From sequence record MK165087.1: a stretch of DNA of 59,550 nt; one strand, 5' to 3'. Numbering within the stretch: position 1 is the stretch's first letter; each line of letters starts with the position of its first letter. The translations under genes and the position numbers were made by a program. The DNA comes from Escherichia phage BRET. Below are positions 18,789 to 38,633 of this stretch, piece after piece. The notes under the pieces are model-generated. The model ran no database searches. It had not been told where the DNA came from and saw only the letters and a list, made by a program, of their open reading frames with translations.

Positions 18789-19687
18789 CTAGTCGTATTT
18801 CGATGTGTTAATAACTAGAACCGTTCGCGAATAAATCTTTTTAACGTCTCGTGTAATATTTCCGGAATACCACTGGCCGTTATATATTTCATTTCCAGTC
18901 GCACCTGTCATTGTTACATAAGTAGGCCTGTCATAGTCGGTTCGTCTGTAATTATACACTCCAACCATAGCAGGCATTATTGCACACGGATAACCCATGT
19001 TTATTGTAAATTGCGGATCAGAAATATTAACAAGCTGCGCATCCAAAGGCATCATCTCTCCATGATATACCATTTGACCAGACCTGTTATAAAAAGCGAC
19101 ACCATATCCAGAATGTGGTAACACCATATCAGAAAATGCGTAAACTGTTATGACACCTGGGCTACCGTTAACTTGATGTAATCTTAATGCGTTGTAGCCG
19201 TTTCTTTGTTCGTGCATAAACATCATGTTCGCCTTTGCACCGCTTTTTATAAAGAAGAAACATGATTTGTTTGAAGGTATGGATGTTGTAAAAACAGAGT
19301 CCTTTGAAGTTCCCATCGTACCTTTATTAATTAAGTTCTGAGGTGTGAATTCAGGGCTCAACCACACGTTTCCATTCGGTTGAGCAATAGACATCCCATA
19401 CATGATTACCCCCAATAAGTATAAATATAAGACCCAAGACCTGTATATAAGTTCGACCAACTAATTGTATTACCACTAATTACAACAGAGGGAACTGGTA
19501 AGTCTATATAGTTATCGTTGTTAAAAGGAAGTATAGACCAAACAGCCTTTAATGCCTTTCCAGGTGGTGGACTGTCGTATGTCTTAGAACCAGAAGATGC
19601 TGTGAATCTATCTAAAAAGAAGATTGGAGTTAAAATACCAGTGACATCCACACCTTTAGAATTGTATACAGCAAAACCGTATTTCAT
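18789..19687 (-). CDS. hypothetical protein split by a frameshift at a G5 tract
   Basis: Two overlapping minus-strand ORFs (19406..19687 and 18789..19460) in frames that differ by -1, sharing related motifs (YGFAVYNSKG / YGVAFYNRSGQ). Confidence 0.4.
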
Positions 19688-19839
19688 TTATCACTCCAAT
19701 AATCAAATGTTCAAATCTAATACTAGAATAAAGCTATTATACATTTATATTATATACCTAATGCACATCTGAATACTTGTTATTATACCTGTTTAATTTT
19801 ACTATATGTATCTAGTATTCTCAATGTAAAGAGGCGAAC

Positions 19840-22011
19840 ATGTCGATTCGTTTAACTGGTATTTTAGTTGACGGGTTGAATAATCCGTTAGTTAATACTA
19901 CTGTCACACTAATTGCAAGAAGTAACACGTTACTAGTGTTAGGTAGTAGCGAAGCTGTATTTCGCACAGACGCACAAGGTGCATATAATATCACAGTGAA
20001 CCCAGGGCACTATGTGGTCATAGTAGGCCCTCAAGGAAAAGAACCATATAAAGCAGGTGAAATTGTTCTTTATGCAGATAGCCCAGAGGGATCTCTCAAT
20101 GGATATCTGGTCAATTGGGTGGAAGAAGAACTAACACCAGATGTTATCAAACAAGTTCAACAACTTGTGGCTAACTCTGAGGAATACGCGTTACAAGCTG
20201 GTCGCTCTGCTGCGGCAGCAAATGCAGATGCTACGGATGCTCGCAATAGTAAGGCTTCAGCTGCTCAATCTGCTTCGGATGCACTTGTCTATAAAAATGA
20301 TGCTAAAGCTAGTGAAGACGCTGCTAGACAAGCACAGGCTGGAGCTGCCGGTTCTGCTAACACTGCATCACAAGCTGTAACCACAATTCAAGGTCTAAAA
20401 TCTGAGGTTGAGCAGTTAAAAGTAGACACACAGACTATTAAAGATAGTGCAGTAAGCGAGACGCAAGCAATTAAGAATAGTGCAGTAACCGAAACACAAG
20501 CAATTAAAGACGCTGCTGTGTCCGAAACTACCGCGCTAAAAGATGCTGCCGCTGCTTCAGCTACACAAGCAAGCAATAGCGCCACTGAAGCTGGACAACA
20601 AGCAAGCAACGCGGGTACAAGCGCAACCGCAGCTAAAAACGACGCGGACCGTGCAAAGGTAGAAGCAGACCGTGCGGAAGTTGCAGCTAACAGGGCTCCG
20701 GATCTTCAACCATTCCCTGATGTATGGATTCCATTTAATGACTCGCTGGATATGCTTGCAGGTTACTCGCCAGGCTATAAGAAAATAACAGTTGGTGAAG
20801 ATGTTATTACAATGCCTTCTGATAAGGTTGTTAATTTCTCGCGTGCGTCAAATGCAACATATATAAACAAACACGGTGAGTTTTGTATTGCTAATATCGA
20901 TGAACCTAGATTTGAAAAGCAAGGACTCTTAATCGAAGGGCAGAGGACAAACCACATTACTTTTAGTAACGACCCGGCTTCCTTAAACACGGATAGACAT
21001 CGTAGCGATGTTACATATGGTGTTGATAAGTATGGTTTTACATACATAACGGCAACTGTAAACCAAAATGGTCAAGGTGATACGCCATCACTATTTTATT
21101 GCGAATACAATAATAGCATATATTGTCAGCAGAACGAATACGCAACCTTATCTATTAGAGTGAAAGCAAATAATATTTCCATAATTCCTCAATTTTATGC
21201 GTTGGGAGAAGATAATGCCCTTATTCTTGTTGCAAGATCTATATTGTCGTGTGATACAGGGGAGGTTACATCTACACTCGAAGCTAGAGGAACTGTAACA
21301 CACAGAATCACCAAAGAAGATAACGGATGGCTGAAGGTTGAGATAATATGTAAATTTTCTGATATTGCAGGTGCTATGATTGGGAGCATCAACTATGCCC
21401 ACGGCCCTAACGGAGGTAATGTGCAAGTTGGGGATACAATATCCTTTTGTACCCCGCAGTTTGAAAAGGGTTTTTGTGCATCCTCCTTCATTATTACGGG
21501 GAGCACACCTGCAACAAGGGCTGTGGATTATGTTACTATACCTGCGAGAAATAATTTCTCAGGGATGAATATTTCATTCCTTGCTGAGGTGAGCGTTAAC
21601 TGGGATACCTTTCAATTAGATAATACATACCCAATGATAGTTGATAACAACCAGTACTTCGTAAGAGGAAAAGCATTTGTTGCGGAATTTGACGCAACCA
21701 CCGCTACACCTTACTCGTATGTAGTAAATGAAGATGGATCAACTATATTATCAAGAGGTTATGCATTTGAAAAACAACCTTCTTCACATGTGTTTGGTTT
21801 TATTTTTAGTGGTAATGGAGACGTCACCTCATTTGTTAATGGGAATAAGGGGGGTACTTCACATGGTTCTACATGGAAAGGAACAGACTCGGACTCCCTA
21901 GTAGAAGTAGGTGGAAGACTTTCAGATTCAACTAAATTGTACGGTCATATTCGTAACCTTAGAATATGGAATCGAGTATTAACGGATAGTCAAATGAGGG
22001 AGAAAGTTTAA
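19840..22011 (+). CDS. tail fiber protein
   Basis: 723 aa; Ala-rich N-terminal repeats (ETQAIKDSAVS x3-4); C-terminal region possibly lectin-like; AAGAGG RBS. Confidence 0.6.
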   Translation: MSIRLTGILVDGLNNPLVNTTVTLIARSNTLLVLGSSEAVFRTDAQGAYNITVNPGHYVVIVGPQGKEPYKAGEIVLYADSPEGSLNGYLVNWVEEELTPDVIKQVQQLVANSEEYALQAGRSAAAANADATDARNSKASAAQSASDALVYKNDAKASEDAARQAQAGAAGSANTASQAVTTIQGLKSEVEQLKVDTQTIKDSAVSETQAIKNSAVTETQAIKDAAVSETTALKDAAAASATQASNSATEAGQQASNAGTSATAAKNDADRAKVEADRAEVAANRAPDLQPFPDVWIPFNDSLDMLAGYSPGYKKITVGEDVITMPSDKVVNFSRASNATYINKHGEFCIANIDEPRFEKQGLLIEGQRTNHITFSNDPASLNTDRHRSDVTYGVDKYGFTYITATVNQNGQGDTPSLFYCEYNNSIYCQQNEYATLSIRVKANNISIIPQFYALGEDNALILVARSILSCDTGEVTSTLEARGTVTHRITKEDNGWLKVEIICKFSDIAGAMIGSINYAHGPNGGNVQVGDTISFCTPQFEKGFCASSFIITGSTPATRAVDYVTIPARNNFSGMNISFLAEVSVNWDTFQLDNTYPMIVDNNQYFVRGKAFVAEFDATTATPYSYVVNEDGSTILSRGYAFEKQPSSHVFGFIFSGNGDVTSFVNGNKGGTSHGSTWKGTDSDSLVEVGGRLSDSTKLYGHIRNLRIWNRVLTDSQMREKV

Positions 22012-22013
22012 AA

Positions 22014-22280
22014 ATGAAGGATATTAGCTTGCAATTTAAAGACGAAGAACATTATCGGGATGTTGTCATTGATAGTGATTGGCTTAAGACAAACTACGGT
22101 AAAGTGTTTGTAGATGAAATTGGTTTTGTCCTCATAGTAGATGACACGAAAAGTAAGACTCCAGTTGTCATTGGCAAAGAAGGGTATTATATAAACATAA
22201 GAATAATAGGGGACAATGTGGACTTGTCAGATCTTGAACAATTTATTATTAAGAATCCCTGTGTACGTAACTGGGCATAA
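22014..22280 (+). CDS. hypothetical protein
   Basis: 88-aa ORF between two fiber genes. Confidence 0.4.
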   Translation: MKDISLQFKDEEHYRDVVIDSDWLKTNYGKVFVDEIGFVLIVDDTKSKTPVVIGKEGYYINIRIIGDNVDLSDLEQFIIKNPCVRNWA

Positions 22281-22290
22281 GAGGTGATCA

Positions 22291-24030
22291 ATGACTACTT
22301 ATACTAATATCCCTCGGGACATTACAAAACTTAAAGATGAAAAGATGGATAAAAGTAATAACTTATCCGATCTTGCGGACCGTGCTGCTGCGTGGTTAAA
22401 CGTCCGACCAATTGGGTCTACACCATTAGCTGGGGACCCCGTTAACGATTATGACGCCGTAACTAAGCGTTGGGTGGAGAACAAGATTAATACTGGTACA
22501 GTAGGACCCACAATGAATGGCGTTATGAATTACGGGGTTGGGGATTTTCATCTTCGAGATAGCCGTGCGTATATTCAACCGTATGAGGTGGTTTCTGATG
22601 GGCAGCTTCTTAACAGGGCTGACTGGCCTGAGCTTTGGGCATATGCTCAAATGGTCGGTGTTATAGAGGATTCAGTTTGGTTAGCGGATAAATTCCAGCG
22701 TGGTAAATATTCTAATGGTGACGGAGCAACAACTTTTCGTGTTCCAGATAAGAATGGCGTACAAGCTGGGTCGATACGCGCTCTTTATGGTCGTGGTGAC
22801 GGTGGAAATAGTGGTGCAAATGGCCAGCTATTTGAATCTGCTGCACCAAATATTACAGGTTATTTTACCACTTATTCCAGTGGTAGTTACGCGCAGGCTA
22901 TTGGCACATCTTATGGTGCATTTTATTCCGACAATGGCGTATTCCCTGATGTTAGCGGGGGTGATGCAATCCCTGGAGGTACAAAAGCAATAGCAGGTCG
23001 CTATAACACATGTAATTTTAACGCTTCCCGCTCAAGTCCAATTTACGGAGCATCAACTGATGAAATTCTTACACGAAACTTTGTAGGCGTGTGGGTAATC
23101 CGCGCATCTGGTGGGTTTGTCGCCGCGAATACGTCTTGGAGTGTTAAGAACGCAGATGGTAGCGCACCTGCGCTGAACACTACCGTTCGTGGCGGCGAGG
23201 TAGTGTCGGAATATTCCAACCCGGCAGGTAAGCGGTTTGCGCGTCTGTACTCAGAAACTGTCTGGGACTCTTCCAGCGCGGCTGTTATTGAGGCGGAAGG
23301 TTCTACTAAACACTCCTACAAATTTTACGAGAATGGTACAGCTGACTTCCGACAGTCGGGTAGGGTTAACACCTTCCATATGAACACACCTATGGGCACA
23401 TGGAATGATGCTACTGAGGCTCTAATGAACAACCTTACTACTAATGGCATGAATAGGGTAGCCATTGCTAGTGGTTCCGACGCACTAGTTCGTGGCTATT
23501 CTATAGGAGGATATCGACCTAATGGCTATCCAACTAAGGTTGGCCTCCATATGTATATACCCGGAAATGATGGATGGGGTATAGCATGTGTAACAGTTGG
23601 CGGGGATAATGGTAGATTCTGTCGATATTTCCTTGACATCGACGGTCAGATTTACGGGGGTACGAATTCCGGTAACTTCAGCTACACCAAGAACGGTGCC
23701 TCTGACGCACGAGTCAAGCATAACATCTCCCCTGTCGGCGTTGAGAAGTCGTACTCCAACATCCAAGGTCTGGAGTTTGTAGAGTTCATCTACGACAACG
23801 ACGAACAGGAACGAGTGCGTCATGGTGTAATCGCGCAGCAGGCGGAGACTGTTGAACCTCTATACGTTAAGACCCGTAAGTACGTGGGTATTAATCCAGG
23901 AGAGGTTGTGGAGCAGAAGGAACTGGACACCACGCCGATGCTTCTCGATACCATGCACGTTGTGCAGGTTTTGATGCAGAAGATCGAGGCGATGGAGGCG
24001 GAGATTGCCGAGCTAAAGGCGAGTAAGTAA
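22291..24030 (+). CDS. tail fiber protein with C-terminal intramolecular chaperone (S74-like) domain
   Basis: C-terminal about 100 aa (VKHNISPVG...GLEFVEF...HGVIAQQ...coiled coil) resembles self-cleaving chaperone domains of phage fibers. Confidence 0.6.
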   Translation: MTTYTNIPRDITKLKDEKMDKSNNLSDLADRAAAWLNVRPIGSTPLAGDPVNDYDAVTKRWVENKINTGTVGPTMNGVMNYGVGDFHLRDSRAYIQPYEVVSDGQLLNRADWPELWAYAQMVGVIEDSVWLADKFQRGKYSNGDGATTFRVPDKNGVQAGSIRALYGRGDGGNSGANGQLFESAAPNITGYFTTYSSGSYAQAIGTSYGAFYSDNGVFPDVSGGDAIPGGTKAIAGRYNTCNFNASRSSPIYGASTDEILTRNFVGVWVIRASGGFVAANTSWSVKNADGSAPALNTTVRGGEVVSEYSNPAGKRFARLYSETVWDSSSAAVIEAEGSTKHSYKFYENGTADFRQSGRVNTFHMNTPMGTWNDATEALMNNLTTNGMNRVAIASGSDALVRGYSIGGYRPNGYPTKVGLHMYIPGNDGWGIACVTVGGDNGRFCRYFLDIDGQIYGGTNSGNFSYTKNGASDARVKHNISPVGVEKSYSNIQGLEFVEFIYDNDEQERVRHGVIAQQAETVEPLYVKTRKYVGINPGEVVEQKELDTTPMLLDTMHVVQVLMQKIEAMEAEIAELKASK

Positions 24031-24034
24031 ACAG

Positions 24035-24056
24035 AACCCTGCTTCGGCGGGGTTAT
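24035..24056 (+). terminator. possible hairpin after tail fiber gene
   Basis: AACCCTGC-ttcg-GCGGGGTT stem with one G-U pair; weak T tract. Confidence 0.4.
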
Positions 24057-24087
24057 TGCATTGCACCATAAAGCAATTCTTGCTTTG

Positions 24088-24234
24088 ATGGACCCTTTAA
24101 CTGGTATTATGTCAGTAATGAGTTCAGGTAAACTAACTCAGCAACAAGTTGATATTGCACAACGCATTGTTGTAAAGGTCTTGGTTGTTCTAGGCATCCA
24201 AGAATCAAATAAAAAACAAGAAAAAGAAGAATAA
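24088..24234 (+). CDS. small hypothetical ORF (48 aa)
   Basis: ATG-initiated ORF between two terminators, below the track's size cutoff; no clear RBS. Confidence 0.25.
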   Translation: MDPLTGIMSVMSSGKLTQQQVDIAQRIVVKVLVVLGIQESNKKQEKEE

Positions 24235-24270
24235 GCAGAGGCAACGTTCGGCATTTTGGGGCAGTTTATT

Positions 24271-24303
24271 GTGGGCCAGTACAAATGTATTGGCCCACTT
24301 TTT
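24271..24303 (+). terminator. rho-independent terminator at end of late region
   Basis: GTGGGCCA-12 nt loop-TGGCCCAC followed by TTTTT. Confidence 0.6.
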
Positions 24304-24304
24304 A

Positions 24305-26278
24305 TTAAGCGGCGTATGCGAGTTTTTCCAGCAATTTTTCCGCTTTAGCTATGTACACTTCGTGGTTGAGATCCGGCGGCAATTGATCGGTGAGTTCCAT
24401 CATGGGTTTACCCCCTGCTGTCTTACCGACACGACCACCACTCTTGACTATCAGTATTTCAGGTACTTCCTCTTTTGTATAATACCAACGAACAACTTTA
24501 CCTAGTGGCTCGCTATTCCATGCAGCGCCACCGTTAGCTGTCTTAATACAAACAAACTTACGAATGTCCTGACACTCTGTGATAGTTTTAGCAATTGGTG
24601 TGCCGTCACGGAGGAGATTAACCACAGCATCCATAATGATCTCACCTTCCGCGTTCTTAGCAAGGCCAGTCTCTGCGAACCAACCTTTACGCTTGGCTTT
24701 ACCATCCGCCTTAATTGCGACGTAGTTGTTAACGTTTGCAGAGTTAAGACGCAGGTACTGGTTCAGTTCCATTTCAAAGCCAGTTGTCTCTTCCCACCAC
24801 TTGATGATATCAGTCATTAATTGCTTCTTAGCTTTGCAAGGTTTAATAACGATACCATCTGTGTTAGCACTAACGACCTGGATACCATTAAGCTCCAGTG
24901 TTTCAATGAGCATAAGTAGAGCTAACTGACCTGTGAGCGTAGTCTGGATAATAAGGTGTGGTGCATACAGGATAGAGAACGGTGAACCGAACTTACCATA
25001 GGAACCGTTGATAACGATCTTAAGAGTTTGTGCGGTCTTATCGTCATGAGCCATCTTAGCTGCAATACGTCGTTCTACGATCTTAACGAAGATATCTATA
25101 AAGCGTGGGCCCAGGTGTTCAGGATACAGTTGCTGGTTAATGATACAGATTGGGTAGTACGATGTTACGTCAGCATCCCACATCTCTTCATCTTCAGACG
25201 GTACAATCTCCATTAACTCTTCGCACGAGTGCAGACCACCGATGCCCATGTTGTAAGTTGTCTGGTTGATTGTAAACTTCAAAGAGTTCATTGTAGATGG
25301 TTGCTTAATTTTACCATCTTCTGCAACTCGGAAGTAACTGTCAAGCACCACCTGAAATACCGACTTCATTAGTGGCGTTTGGAAACCTAACCACACTGGA
25401 GGATTGTATCTAAAGGTTCTACCGACTTCCACCATACCCTTCTGTGGCACGAAGCCCAGCATTTCCTTCATCTCATGACGAATTACAGCTTCTGCAATCT
25501 GTGCGTCAGATTTAGAGCGAAGGTCTACTTTATACTCTTCACTCATAATCTCACGTAGATGGATCTGCTCTTCCAGCGAGTTAAACAGAGCCATTGTTGT
25601 ATCAAGGTCGTTAATACAGTAGAAGCGCACAATAGCAATCTGTTCTATGGACAGCGCCCAATGCGGTGGGAACGGTAAGTCCTGGAGCTTCTGCATGTGC
25701 ATACGGCCACCGTACAGCTTCAGTGAACCGAAGCCAGGAGCTACTTCTTGAACGTCAATGTGGTCAATCCAAAACTGTTTCACACCAAAACTGTTAAGAA
25801 CGTCCCACGGAGCCCACTCTTCCTGGATCATCCTGTCACTTGCTTCTTTCAACTTGTCGACAGTCAGTCCAGCAATGGCAAGGAATGACATCGTGTTATC
25901 GTAGTTTCTTGAGTTGAAACCAACGGTACGAAAGTTCTTCATTATCCATTCGTACTTTTCCGTGTCAAGTGTCTGACCAGCAGTCATTTCTAGATAATAA
26001 ACCTTACCGAACTTAACCCCTTTGAACGCCACAAGAAAATAGTTCTTATAGCATTCAATATCGTATACGAACGTTTCTTGTGCAAAATACATCTCCACTA
26101 ACTCACCGTCTGTCATACGCGGATCGTTAGCTGCAAAACGCATTGCTGCATCAAGACCTGGAAGGTAGTCCGGACGCTCCCATACCATTTCAACTGGTTG
26201 ACGTTTTACTTTCTGTTTCTTCTCTTTCTTAGCGGGAGGTAAATCCTCCCAAAAGAAACCAATAGCATCTTTTCTCAT
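24305..26278 (-). CDS. DNA polymerase (family A-like, with 3'-5' exonuclease motif)
   Basis: YDIECY (exo I-like), RRIAAK...NGSYGKFG (motif B-like), NTDG. Confidence 0.7.
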   Translation of the reverse strand: MRKDAIGFFWEDLPPAKKEKKQKVKRQPVEMVWERPDYLPGLDAAMRFAANDPRMTDGELVEMYFAQETFVYDIECYKNYFLVAFKGVKFGKVYYLEMTAGQTLDTEKYEWIMKNFRTVGFNSRNYDNTMSFLAIAGLTVDKLKEASDRMIQEEWAPWDVLNSFGVKQFWIDHIDVQEVAPGFGSLKLYGGRMHMQKLQDLPFPPHWALSIEQIAIVRFYCINDLDTTMALFNSLEEQIHLREIMSEEYKVDLRSKSDAQIAEAVIRHEMKEMLGFVPQKGMVEVGRTFRYNPPVWLGFQTPLMKSVFQVVLDSYFRVAEDGKIKQPSTMNSLKFTINQTTYNMGIGGLHSCEELMEIVPSEDEEMWDADVTSYYPICIINQQLYPEHLGPRFIDIFVKIVERRIAAKMAHDDKTAQTLKIVINGSYGKFGSPFSILYAPHLIIQTTLTGQLALLMLIETLELNGIQVVSANTDGIVIKPCKAKKQLMTDIIKWWEETTGFEMELNQYLRLNSANVNNYVAIKADGKAKRKGWFAETGLAKNAEGEIIMDAVVNLLRDGTPIAKTITECQDIRKFVCIKTANGGAAWNSEPLGKVVRWYYTKEEVPEILIVKSGGRVGKTAGGKPMMELTDQLPPDLNHEVYIAKAEKLLEKLAYAA

Positions 26279-27267
26279 AGACGAAATCCTACAATTACCC
26301 CACGTAGATTTTCACCATAAAAAATAATAGGAGTTGAAAGACCCCTTTCGTCCTTTTCATTGAAACGAGAGGCATCCCAGTCCGTTGCAAGTCCTTTCAA
26401 CTGCATAATAAGATCTATATTATACACGCCAATTGACTTGGATTCACGGAACATTGCACTAGCACCATCCAACTCGTTGTAATGTGTGCGTACAACACCA
26501 TTCTCCATGTAAATACGCCCATCCCGCTCACAGAACGGTTTTATCTTTTCTAAGCAATTAAAAAGCTCAGTATCAAGCGTATAAACGTCGGACCCCTTTT
26601 CTGTACGCTCAATTATCTTATCAATATTAGGCCACTTTAATTCCAGTAATTGTGTACGCAACCAGCAACCGTCTTCGTAATGGAATGTCATACTGGTATC
26701 TGTACATTGAATTCTTACTGGTGGCTTTTTAATGCGCAATAATTCTTTGATGGCCATACGTGGTACAACACAATCGACAGGGAATACAGCACCGAACCAA
26801 TATTGTATAATGCTGGCGTTGTTAGTCGCGTACATGCTGCCCTGTTTTACCAGCACGCCGCAAGACCACGGGCGGGAAGCATCGTCGCTTATAAACGGCG
26901 TCACGCGGCTTAAACCGTTAAGAAAAAGCTGACCGTCTATTTCGTGAATCGTTCCTTCTGGCTCTACGTGTGCAGTTGGTTTCTGAAGAGTATCTACACT
27001 AACCTTAAAGCCACCAGACTTAATGCTCAACTTACCGTTCGCTAACATTGTCATCTGTACAGCTTCGTCACATGCTGCAATAGCCTTGAGCATCGGTTCA
27101 GCTTTCGGTGTACAGTCAATGTTCAGTGGTACTGGGCTACACAATGAAATAGTTCCGTTGAACCCGCGAACAGTACCATCAACAATACGGAAGTGAGTTA
27201 AACCTTCCTGGAGTTCTTTCTTAGCTACAGAACCCTGAACAAACTTTAAAGCATCAAGTAAATCCAT
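26275..27267 (-). CDS. putative sliding clamp-like protein
   Basis: 330 aa, translationally coupled to the polymerase; N-terminus loosely resembles beta-clamp. Confidence 0.35.
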   Translation of the reverse strand: MDLLDALKFVQGSVAKKELQEGLTHFRIVDGTVRGFNGTISLCSPVPLNIDCTPKAEPMLKAIAACDEAVQMTMLANGKLSIKSGGFKVSVDTLQKPTAHVEPEGTIHEIDGQLFLNGLSRVTPFISDDASRPWSCGVLVKQGSMYATNNASIIQYWFGAVFPVDCVVPRMAIKELLRIKKPPVRIQCTDTSMTFHYEDGCWLRTQLLELKWPNIDKIIERTEKGSDVYTLDTELFNCLEKIKPFCERDGRIYMENGVVRTHYNELDGASAMFRESKSIGVYNIDLIMQLKGLATDWDASRFNEKDERGLSTPIIFYGENLRGVIVGFRL

Positions 27268-37706: not shown

Positions 37707-38633
37707 TTACTGTGCAGCGTCATCGCCTTCAGTGGAACGTTTCCACGGTGGAGTCTTGGTCTGAGCTGCTTTAGCGATATCGTCCTGGACTTCAGGTTCT
37801 GCATGGTTAGCAGTACCAGTGTTCTGAGCTTGAGTTTGCGGTTGCTCTGCTCCTGGTTGAACCTGCTGAGTTGCCCAGTTAGGCTGCTGAGTCTGTTGCT
37901 GCGCACCAGTAGCCCACGGTTGGGATTGTGCCGCACTGTTAAAGTCAACTGTTCCAGACTGCTGCGTCTGCTGTACAGGTTGTTGCTGCTGTACCGGCTG
38001 CTGCGGCTGTTGTTGCTGCTGCGTTTGCTGGAACCCCTGAGCCTGAGTTTGCTGCTGCTGTTGCTGCGGCTGCTGCCCAAATGCGCCCGGGAAACCCTGC
38101 TGCGGTTGCTGCTGTTGCTGCTGAGCACCACCAAACGCACCGCCACCGAATGCCGGAGACTGTGCTGCCGCTGCTGGAGTTGACTTAGGCAGGTTAGCCA
38201 TGTCCGCCTTAGTTGCGTATACAACACCTTCCATGTTATCAATTGCTTGATAAATTTGAGGTTCGTTGTTTGGCTCATAGCCAGGTTGTTGACGAACTTT
38301 CACTTTCAGGTTAAACGGAATACCGTGCAGTTGTTCAGTATCGTTCCAAACTGGAACTTTAACAGCACGGGACAGCTCTGCCAGTTCTTCCATTGCAATC
38401 TGTACAGCGACAGGGTTCGCGTTCTTGACGTTGTAACCGCCAAACATTACACGACCAGCAAAATCACCCTGCATAATCTTAAACTGAAGATTCAGACGCG
38501 CACCGCCTGGAGTTTTAGTCGGTTTGATTTCAGAGTTTACAATCTGAACAACATACCAACCAGCGGGCATCAAGCTGTTGTGTTGACGCTCTGCGTGCTG
38601 TCCAGCGTTAAATTGCATTCCTAAACCGGCCAT
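37707..38633 (-). CDS. putative ssDNA-binding / annealing protein with Gln/Gly/Pro-rich linker
   Basis: Structured N-terminal 150 aa then a long Q/G/P-rich low-complexity region like SSB linkers; coupled to the Sak4-like ATPase. Confidence 0.4.
   Translation of the reverse strand: MAGLGMQFNAGQHAERQHNSLMPAGWYVVQIVNSEIKPTKTPGGARLNLQFKIMQGDFAGRVMFGGYNVKNANPVAVQIAMEELAELSRAVKVPVWNDTEQLHGIPFNLKVKVRQQPGYEPNNEPQIYQAIDNMEGVVYATKADMANLPKSTPAAAAQSPAFGGGAFGGAQQQQQQPQQGFPGAFGQQPQQQQQQTQAQGFQQTQQQQQPQQPVQQQQPVQQTQQSGTVDFNSAAQSQPWATGAQQQTQQPNWATQQVQPGAEQPQTQAQNTGTANHAEPEVQDDIAKAAQTKTPPWKRSTEGDDAAQ

Follow-up and report, generated by a model that had tools for sequence, protein, structure and literature searches.

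The lateral tail-fibre locus is mosaic in Queuovirinae and other small siphoviruses, and for the genus Maffei et al. (2021, PMC8594841) describe sequence similarity that falls away shortly past the far 5′ end of the first fibre gene and recovers ahead of the polymerase block. In the intact relatives considered here (n = 7: SE1, HdSG1, HdK1, JenP1, JenP2, JenK1 and ESCO3), the last plus-strand gene before the terminator is a 270-nt gene that encodes an 89-aa hypothetical protein. In SE1 and HdSG1, the two genomes for which the complete accessory region was fetched and from which the accessory block is known in full, this gene is the fourth and last of the small accessory genes 3′ of the tail-fibre genes, and in intact homologues there is an overlap between its start and the preceding gene's stop. 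The protein belongs to phrog_7239, whose members include SE1 gp88 (YP_009613617.1), HdSG1_00049, 9NA gp14 (AIB07017.1) and Seurat gp22 (AIW03885.1), and tblastn finds it in 162 phage records, among them Nonagvirus, Seuratvirus and 9NA-like phages. PHROG annotates the family as 'unknown function', and our searches for a clue to its role gave no Pfam match and only noise in NCBIfam and among PDB sequences.

The other members of the block, SE1 gp89–91, have no Pfam match and belong to PHROGs of unknown function. SE1 gp91 (SE1 locus 678–1385), which is absent from the window, is a 235-aa protein of phrog_9288, again of unknown function, with a Gly/Trp-rich N-terminus (GGGFGGEAGAAAVGGGIGGLIGSWIGNGWGGGGGWGGWGG), a Gln-rich middle and two Cys clusters, CCCE and a C-terminal GCCG.

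We place the window, which is the whole 59,550-nt stretch of DNA analysed here, in Nonagvirus (9g-like, Queuovirinae), as a member with its own mosaic. The region 24088–24400 shares 91–97% identity with SE1, HdSG1, HdK1, JenP1, JenP2, JenK1 and ChristophMerian, and ESCO3 is 93% identical up to 24269, where the ESCO3 record ends; the phage collection contains no record covering at least 80% of the query 23950–24350 or 19000–27000. Within this region lies a 48-codon ORF with the translation MDPLTGIMSVMSSGKLTQQQVDIAQRIVVKVLVVLGIQESNKKQEKEE (Table 1). The first-pass annotation had described a 48-aa ORF with an ATG start between a terminator behind the fibre gene and a second, strong one, at a late/early boundary; this anatomy is correct, and the boundary is indeed one at which plus-strand tail-fibre genes meet a minus-strand DNA polymerase gene, annotated as such at the homologous gene in SE1, ChristophMerian, JenP1 and others. 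In the ORF listing, the frame is extended to an in-frame TTG that precedes the ATG by 9 codons and appears as 24061..24234, with 57 aa. We consider it very likely that the ORF is the 3′ fragment of the 89-codon gene, beheaded when a T5-like tail-fibre cassette was swapped in, and it is very probably not a working gene.

Table 1. Features at and around the 48-codon ORF, in positions of the window
Feature	Position	Strand	Description
Nonagvirus-type 5′ end of first lateral tail-fibre gene	19829..20625	+	Conserved anchor, likely left crossover zone
T5-like (Tequintavirus-type) lateral tail-fibre cassette	20487..24090	+	~3.6 kb, 81–89% identity to T5-like phages
Tail-fibre gene, 579 aa	22291..24030	+	Ends 5′ of the ORF; C-terminal Peptidase_S74 chaperone domain
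Upstream hairpin	24035..24054	+	24035–24042 pairs with 24047–24054, 8 bp, UUCG loop
T5-like spacer	24055..24087	+	One 1-nt gap relative to Kenya-K38; holds in-frame TTG at 24061
Recombination junction, ATG	24088..24090	+	Common to donor (TTTGATGCAA) and recipient (ATCCATGGGC)
48-codon ORF	24088..24234	+	ATG at 24088, TAA at 24232–24234
Spacer, old stop codon to terminator	24235..24270	+	Seen in all Nonagvirus genomes compared
Resident intrinsic terminator	24271..24306	+	12-bp stem 24271–24298, 4-nt loop, then UUUUUAUU
DNA polymerase gene	24305..26278	-	Convergent; first of replication gene block

Coding ancestry and present constraint of the ORF

The ORF aligns in frame to residues 42–89 of the 89-aa protein of SE1, HdSG1 and 9NA, with 44 of its 48 residues identical to those of SE1. 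Its ATG is the internal Met42 codon of the parent gene, and the ORF thus begins with ATG only because parent residue 42 is Met. Against the phrog_7239 profile, it matches positions 44–85 of 85 only (E = 3.2e-18, 66.6 bits) and falls short of full-length coverage, whereas the 89-aa SE1 protein matches positions 1–85 (E = 3e-48). In the reverse search, tblastn of SE1 gp88 against the window returns a sole match at 24088–24210 (residues 42–82, 90% identity), and neither homologues of SE1 gp89, gp90 and gp91 nor a second gp88 copy are found anywhere in the window. These results demonstrate both the origin of the ORF as a remnant and the loss of what once stood upstream.

Length would have been a poor guide to this origin, as four 48-aa ORFs besides 24088..24234 lie in non-coding frames within the surrounding 4.5 kb, and the length of the ORF alone is no more than chance expectation. 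The abundance of such frames nearby is what speaks for a chance ORF in an unconstrained intergenic spacer, a reading that we hold to be extremely improbable; it is refuted by the strong same-frame homology to a conserved protein family, and it is because of this homology to phrog_7239 that we regard the frame as one with true coding ancestry. The homology is carried by the plus-strand frame. Two minus-strand ORFs, 24107..24244 and 24138..24284, also run across the region, both with TTG starts, and a scan of the whole window for tRNA and tmRNA found neither. The first-pass annotation had left the choice between a small protein and a simple spacer, both of which miss the origin of the ORF, with the spacer functionally the closer of the two. 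It had also named a lack of frame conservation in related genomes as the outcome that would speak against a gene: literally taken, the frame is conserved, but only inside a larger gene, and relatives whose tail-fibre cassette is a different one have it cut elsewhere or lack it.

The substitution pattern differs between the intact gene and the remnant. Within the 48 codons, pairwise comparison of the seven intact copies gives 106 synonymous versus 22 non-synonymous changes, and SE1 versus JenP1 gives a ratio of 12:1 (27:1 over the whole gene). In contrast, the window differs from SE1, its closest relative, by 0 synonymous and 4 non-synonymous changes (G43D, S44P, A69V and A74V), all at sites that are invariant in 7/7 intact Nonagvirus copies; A69 and A74 are kept in 9NA too. 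Fisher's exact test of window–SE1 (0:4) against SE1–JenP1 (12:1) gives p = 0.002, a value that rests on four changes only, two of them next to the junction and so perhaps products of the recombination itself. Subject to the caveats of small numbers and of these two junction-adjacent changes, the pattern would fit relaxed constraint. The frame itself is still open, with no stop and no frameshift.

Signals for translation are sparse. No Shine–Dalgarno (SD) sequence is found before the ATG at 24088, where anti-SD pairing over the 20 nt upstream reaches at best −0.1 kcal/mol compared to −5.8 to −8.5 kcal/mol for three neighbouring genes, which bears out the first-pass remark that a clear ribosome-binding site is missing. 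The ORF therefore has neither an overlap with a preceding stop nor an SD to mark a start of its own, its upstream sequence being foreign and free of an SD. The TTG at 24061 is preceded, 8 nt upstream, by a GGGG with a pairing energy of −6.3 kcal/mol, and this GGGG is the 3′ arm of the upstream hairpin. The ORF is most probably untranslated and very probably without function.

The tail-fibre cassette and its right-hand junction

Left of the junction, Nonagvirus-like sequence returns only in 19829–20625, and it is over exactly this interval that ChristophMerian and SP8 are 84–86% identical to the window. The first lateral tail-fibre ORF (19840..22011, 723 aa) carries the PF08400 phage_tail_N domain at residues 1–134. 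Matches to many T5-like phages, including SP15, AKFV33, Lindwurm and others (81–86% identity), start at ~20487–20551, and the cassette comprises the distal part of the 723-aa fibre, an 88-aa ORF (22014..22280), the 579-aa fibre (22291..24030), the hairpin and a short spacer. Kenya-K38 is 88.6% identical to the window over 23972–24090. From the limits of homology on the left and right, we therefore conclude that a T5-type cassette of ~3.6 kb replaced the resident distal fibre region. Two further phages, phiG7 (84%) and SA126VB (82%), also match the window over 19829–23156.

When the window is aligned with Kenya-K38 and SE1, it is T5-like across the 3′ end of the fibre gene, the hairpin and the spacer, as far as ...CTTGCTTTGATG, and tracks the Nonagvirus sequence from ATGG onward. 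The blastn matches place the change at the same point, with T5-like homology ending at 24090 and Nonagvirus homology beginning at 24088. The position of the junction can thus be read from the alignment, in which the joint is a 3-nt ATG microhomology. We did not find the identical junction in IMG/VR or metagenome contigs with exact and degenerate patterns, nor the exact junction in phage records, and exact-protein look-ups of the 48-aa and 57-aa products gave no match.

The donor side shows a feature of its own. In Kenya-K38, a short ORF, K38_123 (Kenya-K38 locus 2588–2701), lies 3′ of the T5-like fibre terminator, and the window spacer 24055–24087 derives from its first codons. K38_123 contains MQKVENLEAELAALKEANGS, and because this resembles the fibre's own C-terminus, MQKIEAMEAEIAELKASK, the comparison suggests that K38_123 may be an older scar of the fibre 3′ end in the donor lineage.

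The fibre ORF and the remnant share a frame, and 24031–24234 is stop-free, such that read-through past the fibre stop (TAA, 24028–24030) would extend the tail-fibre protein by 67 residues. We give such an extension hardly any credence, as a shared frame has a 1-in-3 chance, a run of 19 stop-free codons is unremarkable, and no recoding signal is seen. Peptidase_S74 chaperone domains are released by self-cleavage in characterised homologues, and a read-through extension would therefore be discarded. The shared frame is probably a coincidence.

Beheading by cassette exchange is the reading that we favour, with the direction and mechanism of the exchange inferred. In relatives such as SE1, the late operon ends with the 89-codon gene, its start overlapping the preceding stop, followed by the terminator. 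In the window, the distal tail-fibre region would have been swapped for a T5-like lateral tail-fibre cassette. The left crossover would have fallen in frame within the conserved 5′ stretch of the first fibre gene, whereas the right one would have been illegitimate, with a 3-nt ATG overlap at which the spacer 3′ of the donor's terminator met the Met42 codon. The exchange would have cost the phage three accessory genes and codons 1–41 of the 89-codon gene.

Two hairpins and the breakpoints of relatives

The upstream hairpin folds with −14.2 kcal/mol over 24031–24066 (z = −3.0), and with 5 G–C pairs in its 8 bp it is a G+C-rich stem-loop. The tract 3′ of it, AUUGCAUU, has 4 U in 8 and does not amount to a U-tract, and the hairpin was not called by the terminator scan because this trailing tract is too U-poor. 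Compared with Kenya-K38, the stem is conserved and the loop differs, and Lindwurm, another T5-like phage, has terminators annotated immediately 3′ of the homologous fibre gene, in the same relative position. The upstream hairpin is probably the donor's tail-fibre terminator, which arrived with the cassette, and it is probably leaky.

The resident terminator combines a G+C-rich stem-loop with a U-tract and folds with −22.3 kcal/mol (z = −5.7); the convergent polymerase gene ends 7 nt away. A terminator is annotated at the homologue of 24271–24298 in HdSG1, HdK1 and SP8, and the element is present in every Nonagvirus genome compared whose sequence reaches it; for 9g, the locus stops short of it, at 24269. 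Read on the minus strand, the segment 24262–24310 forms a hairpin of −18.7 kcal/mol that is followed by AAUAAACUG, with no U run. Because the minus-strand hairpin lacks a following U-tract, the resident terminator looks like a one-way element of the plus strand. The presence of two terminators is explained by the first having come with the cassette and the second being resident, and the scar lies between them because the imported cassette would have brought its own hairpin terminator.

To compare breakpoints, we give the SE1 locus coordinate at which homology resumes, with the other Nonagvirus genomes mapped onto SE1. Homology resumes at 2460 in ChristophMerian, where ~1.7 kb is deleted from codon ~33 of the glycine-rich gp91 homologue to codon ~28–29 of gp88, and at 2501 in the window, where codons 42–89 remain. 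The cut is deeper in SP8 (2547), whose alignment also lacks 22 nt further in, while FritzHoffmann (2606) retains only the last 14 codons, with a 1-nt deletion, and 9g and PD328 (2641) retain the last two codons and the stop. In SP8, the fibre gene borrows an out-of-frame stop inside the gp88 remnant, and in 9g and PD328, whose homology to the window begins at 24228, the gp88 remainder now ends a lambdoid-type tail-fibre assembly gene. The spacer before the terminator is kept in all truncated genomes compared. Alternative breakpoints are thus evident from the alignments, and they indicate that the site has held on to its terminator rather than to the ORF.

Across the genomes compared, the accessory block gp91–gp88 (SE1 locus 678–2647) is deleted or truncated with at least 5 different end points inside gp88. 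In ChristophMerian and FritzHoffmann, only the Gly-rich gp91 N-terminus is left, joined to what remains of gp88 but in a different frame, and the annotation lists the gp91–gp88 fusions as separate hypothetical proteins (bas19_0022 and bas20_0022). None of the other arrangements compared has the four-gene block whole, which marks it as dispensable, at least on laboratory hosts.

The same breakpoints bear on whether the C-terminal half could be an autonomous module, translated from Met42 or from the TTG at 24061 into a functional protein of 48–57 aa. In favour of this, the frame is intact, the Met42-to-stop ORF also survives an independent deletion in ChristophMerian, and the GGGG 8 nt before the TTG is weakly SD-like. 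We nonetheless judge such a module to be improbable. The ATG has no SD, and the 8-bp hairpin sequesters the GGGG; all four changes in the window are non-synonymous and fall on residues that do not vary among the 7 intact Nonagvirus copies; and in 134 of the 162 phage records, the alignment covers 80% or more of the 89-aa protein. SP8, FritzHoffmann, 9g and PD328, moreover, are cut deeper or are entirely without the frame, and the module would therefore be dispensable in the genus.

We instead interpret the ORF as a pseudogene fragment in the 3′ region of the late transcript, most probably an untranslated stretch between the imported hairpin and the resident terminator. If transcribed at all, the remnant would form the 3′ untranslated tail of those late transcripts that pass the weak first hairpin; its translation would be inefficient and its drift neutral, and the downstream terminator would be the element kept by selection at the site.

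The preQ1-I match and comparison with known systems

A permissive Rfam scan matches the PreQ1-I riboswitch (RF00522) to 24175–24225 on the plus strand with 23.2 bits over the full-length model, 16 below the Rfam gathering cut-off of 39 bits for this family. It is the only permissive match inside the ORF, and at Rfam gathering thresholds there is no match in the whole window. Because Queuovirinae make 7-deazaguanine DNA modifications, we examined this match further. A degenerate preQ1-I aptamer at 24175–24225 could tune termination at 24271–24298, and in those Nonagvirus that keep this part, the hairpin and A-rich tail could sense the 7-deazaguanine precursor pool and adjust read-through of the late/early terminator. 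If true, this would be preQ1-type control of read-through into the antisense strand of the DNA polymerase gene. Besides the extent of the match over the full model, the biology of the group lends the idea some appeal, in that Queuovirinae carry preQ0-pathway genes (PMC8594841) and DpdA is annotated beside the polymerase genes in ChristophMerian.

We regard the chance of either the aptamer or its proposed sensing role as vanishingly small. The score and E-value are at chance level, the whole-window E being 2.1, with similar scores for matches of microRNA and snoRNA families, and fitting the sequence to the model takes 6 inserted nt immediately 3′ of P1 as well as a deletion within P2. Among relatives whose gene is intact, JenP2, HdK1 and ESCO3 reach no more than 19 bits, JenP1 and JenK1 are not reported, and the higher score of the window is due to its own C24185T change (A74V). 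Synonymous third-position changes break P1 and are uncompensated in JenP1 (C24180A) and ChristophMerian (G24183A), and by a hand count on the alignment, 3/5 P1 pairs form in 9NA and Seurat, whose homologues also lack the A-rich tail. SP8 and FritzHoffmann have lost the 5′ arm and 9g the entire motif, and no plus-strand gene lies downstream, only the terminator and a convergent gene. The A-rich tail corresponds to the codons for NKKQEKEE. We therefore reject the match as one of chance on the basis of its E-value, the broken P1 and the lower scores in relatives. Like a PreQ1-I riboswitch, 24175–24225 has a 5-bp hairpin followed by an A-rich tail; unlike one, it is below the cut-off, has an insertion after P1, lacks covariation, sits within the last codons of a reading frame rather than in the 5′ leader (5′ UTR) of a queuosine-related gene, and is lost in relatives.

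The best permissive Rfam match in the window lies elsewhere, as a partial isrG match at 37985–38073 on the plus strand (24.2 bits, cut-off 100, E = 0.017). Because it is opposite a Gln-rich stretch of a 308-aa minus-strand ORF (37707..38633), it may be a low-complexity artefact.

The ORF is an ordinary recombination scar, and the main value of recognising it is for annotation, in that it should be labelled a truncated phrog_7239 remnant and not a new small protein. A comparable 48-aa 'hypothetical protein' has already been deposited, namely ChristophMerian bas19_0023 (QXV77136.1), which has the same Met42-to-stop ORF in the same place ahead of the same terminator. It differs in being the product of another deletion event: in ChristophMerian, homology runs ~40 nt 5′ of the ATG, whereas the sequence upstream of the ATG in the window is T5-like. 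Compared to the phrog_7239 proteins, the ORF has the same reading frame and, in Nonagvirus, the same place before the polymerase-facing terminator, but it has lost codons 1–41 together with its native start and its overlap with the gene ahead of it, and four of its residues are changed at sites that are otherwise invariant.

The locus also provides a clean example of how a T5-like to 9g-like cassette exchange ends, in a 3-nt microhomology joint, with an accessory gene beheaded and two terminators left in tandem as the outcome of the swap. As in the lateral tail-fibre mosaicism of Queuovirinae and other small siphoviruses, similarity in the window drops after the far 5′ end of the first fibre gene and is back before the polymerase block; what sets the window apart is that its cassette is most similar to T5-like phages and that its right edge cuts into an accessory gene.
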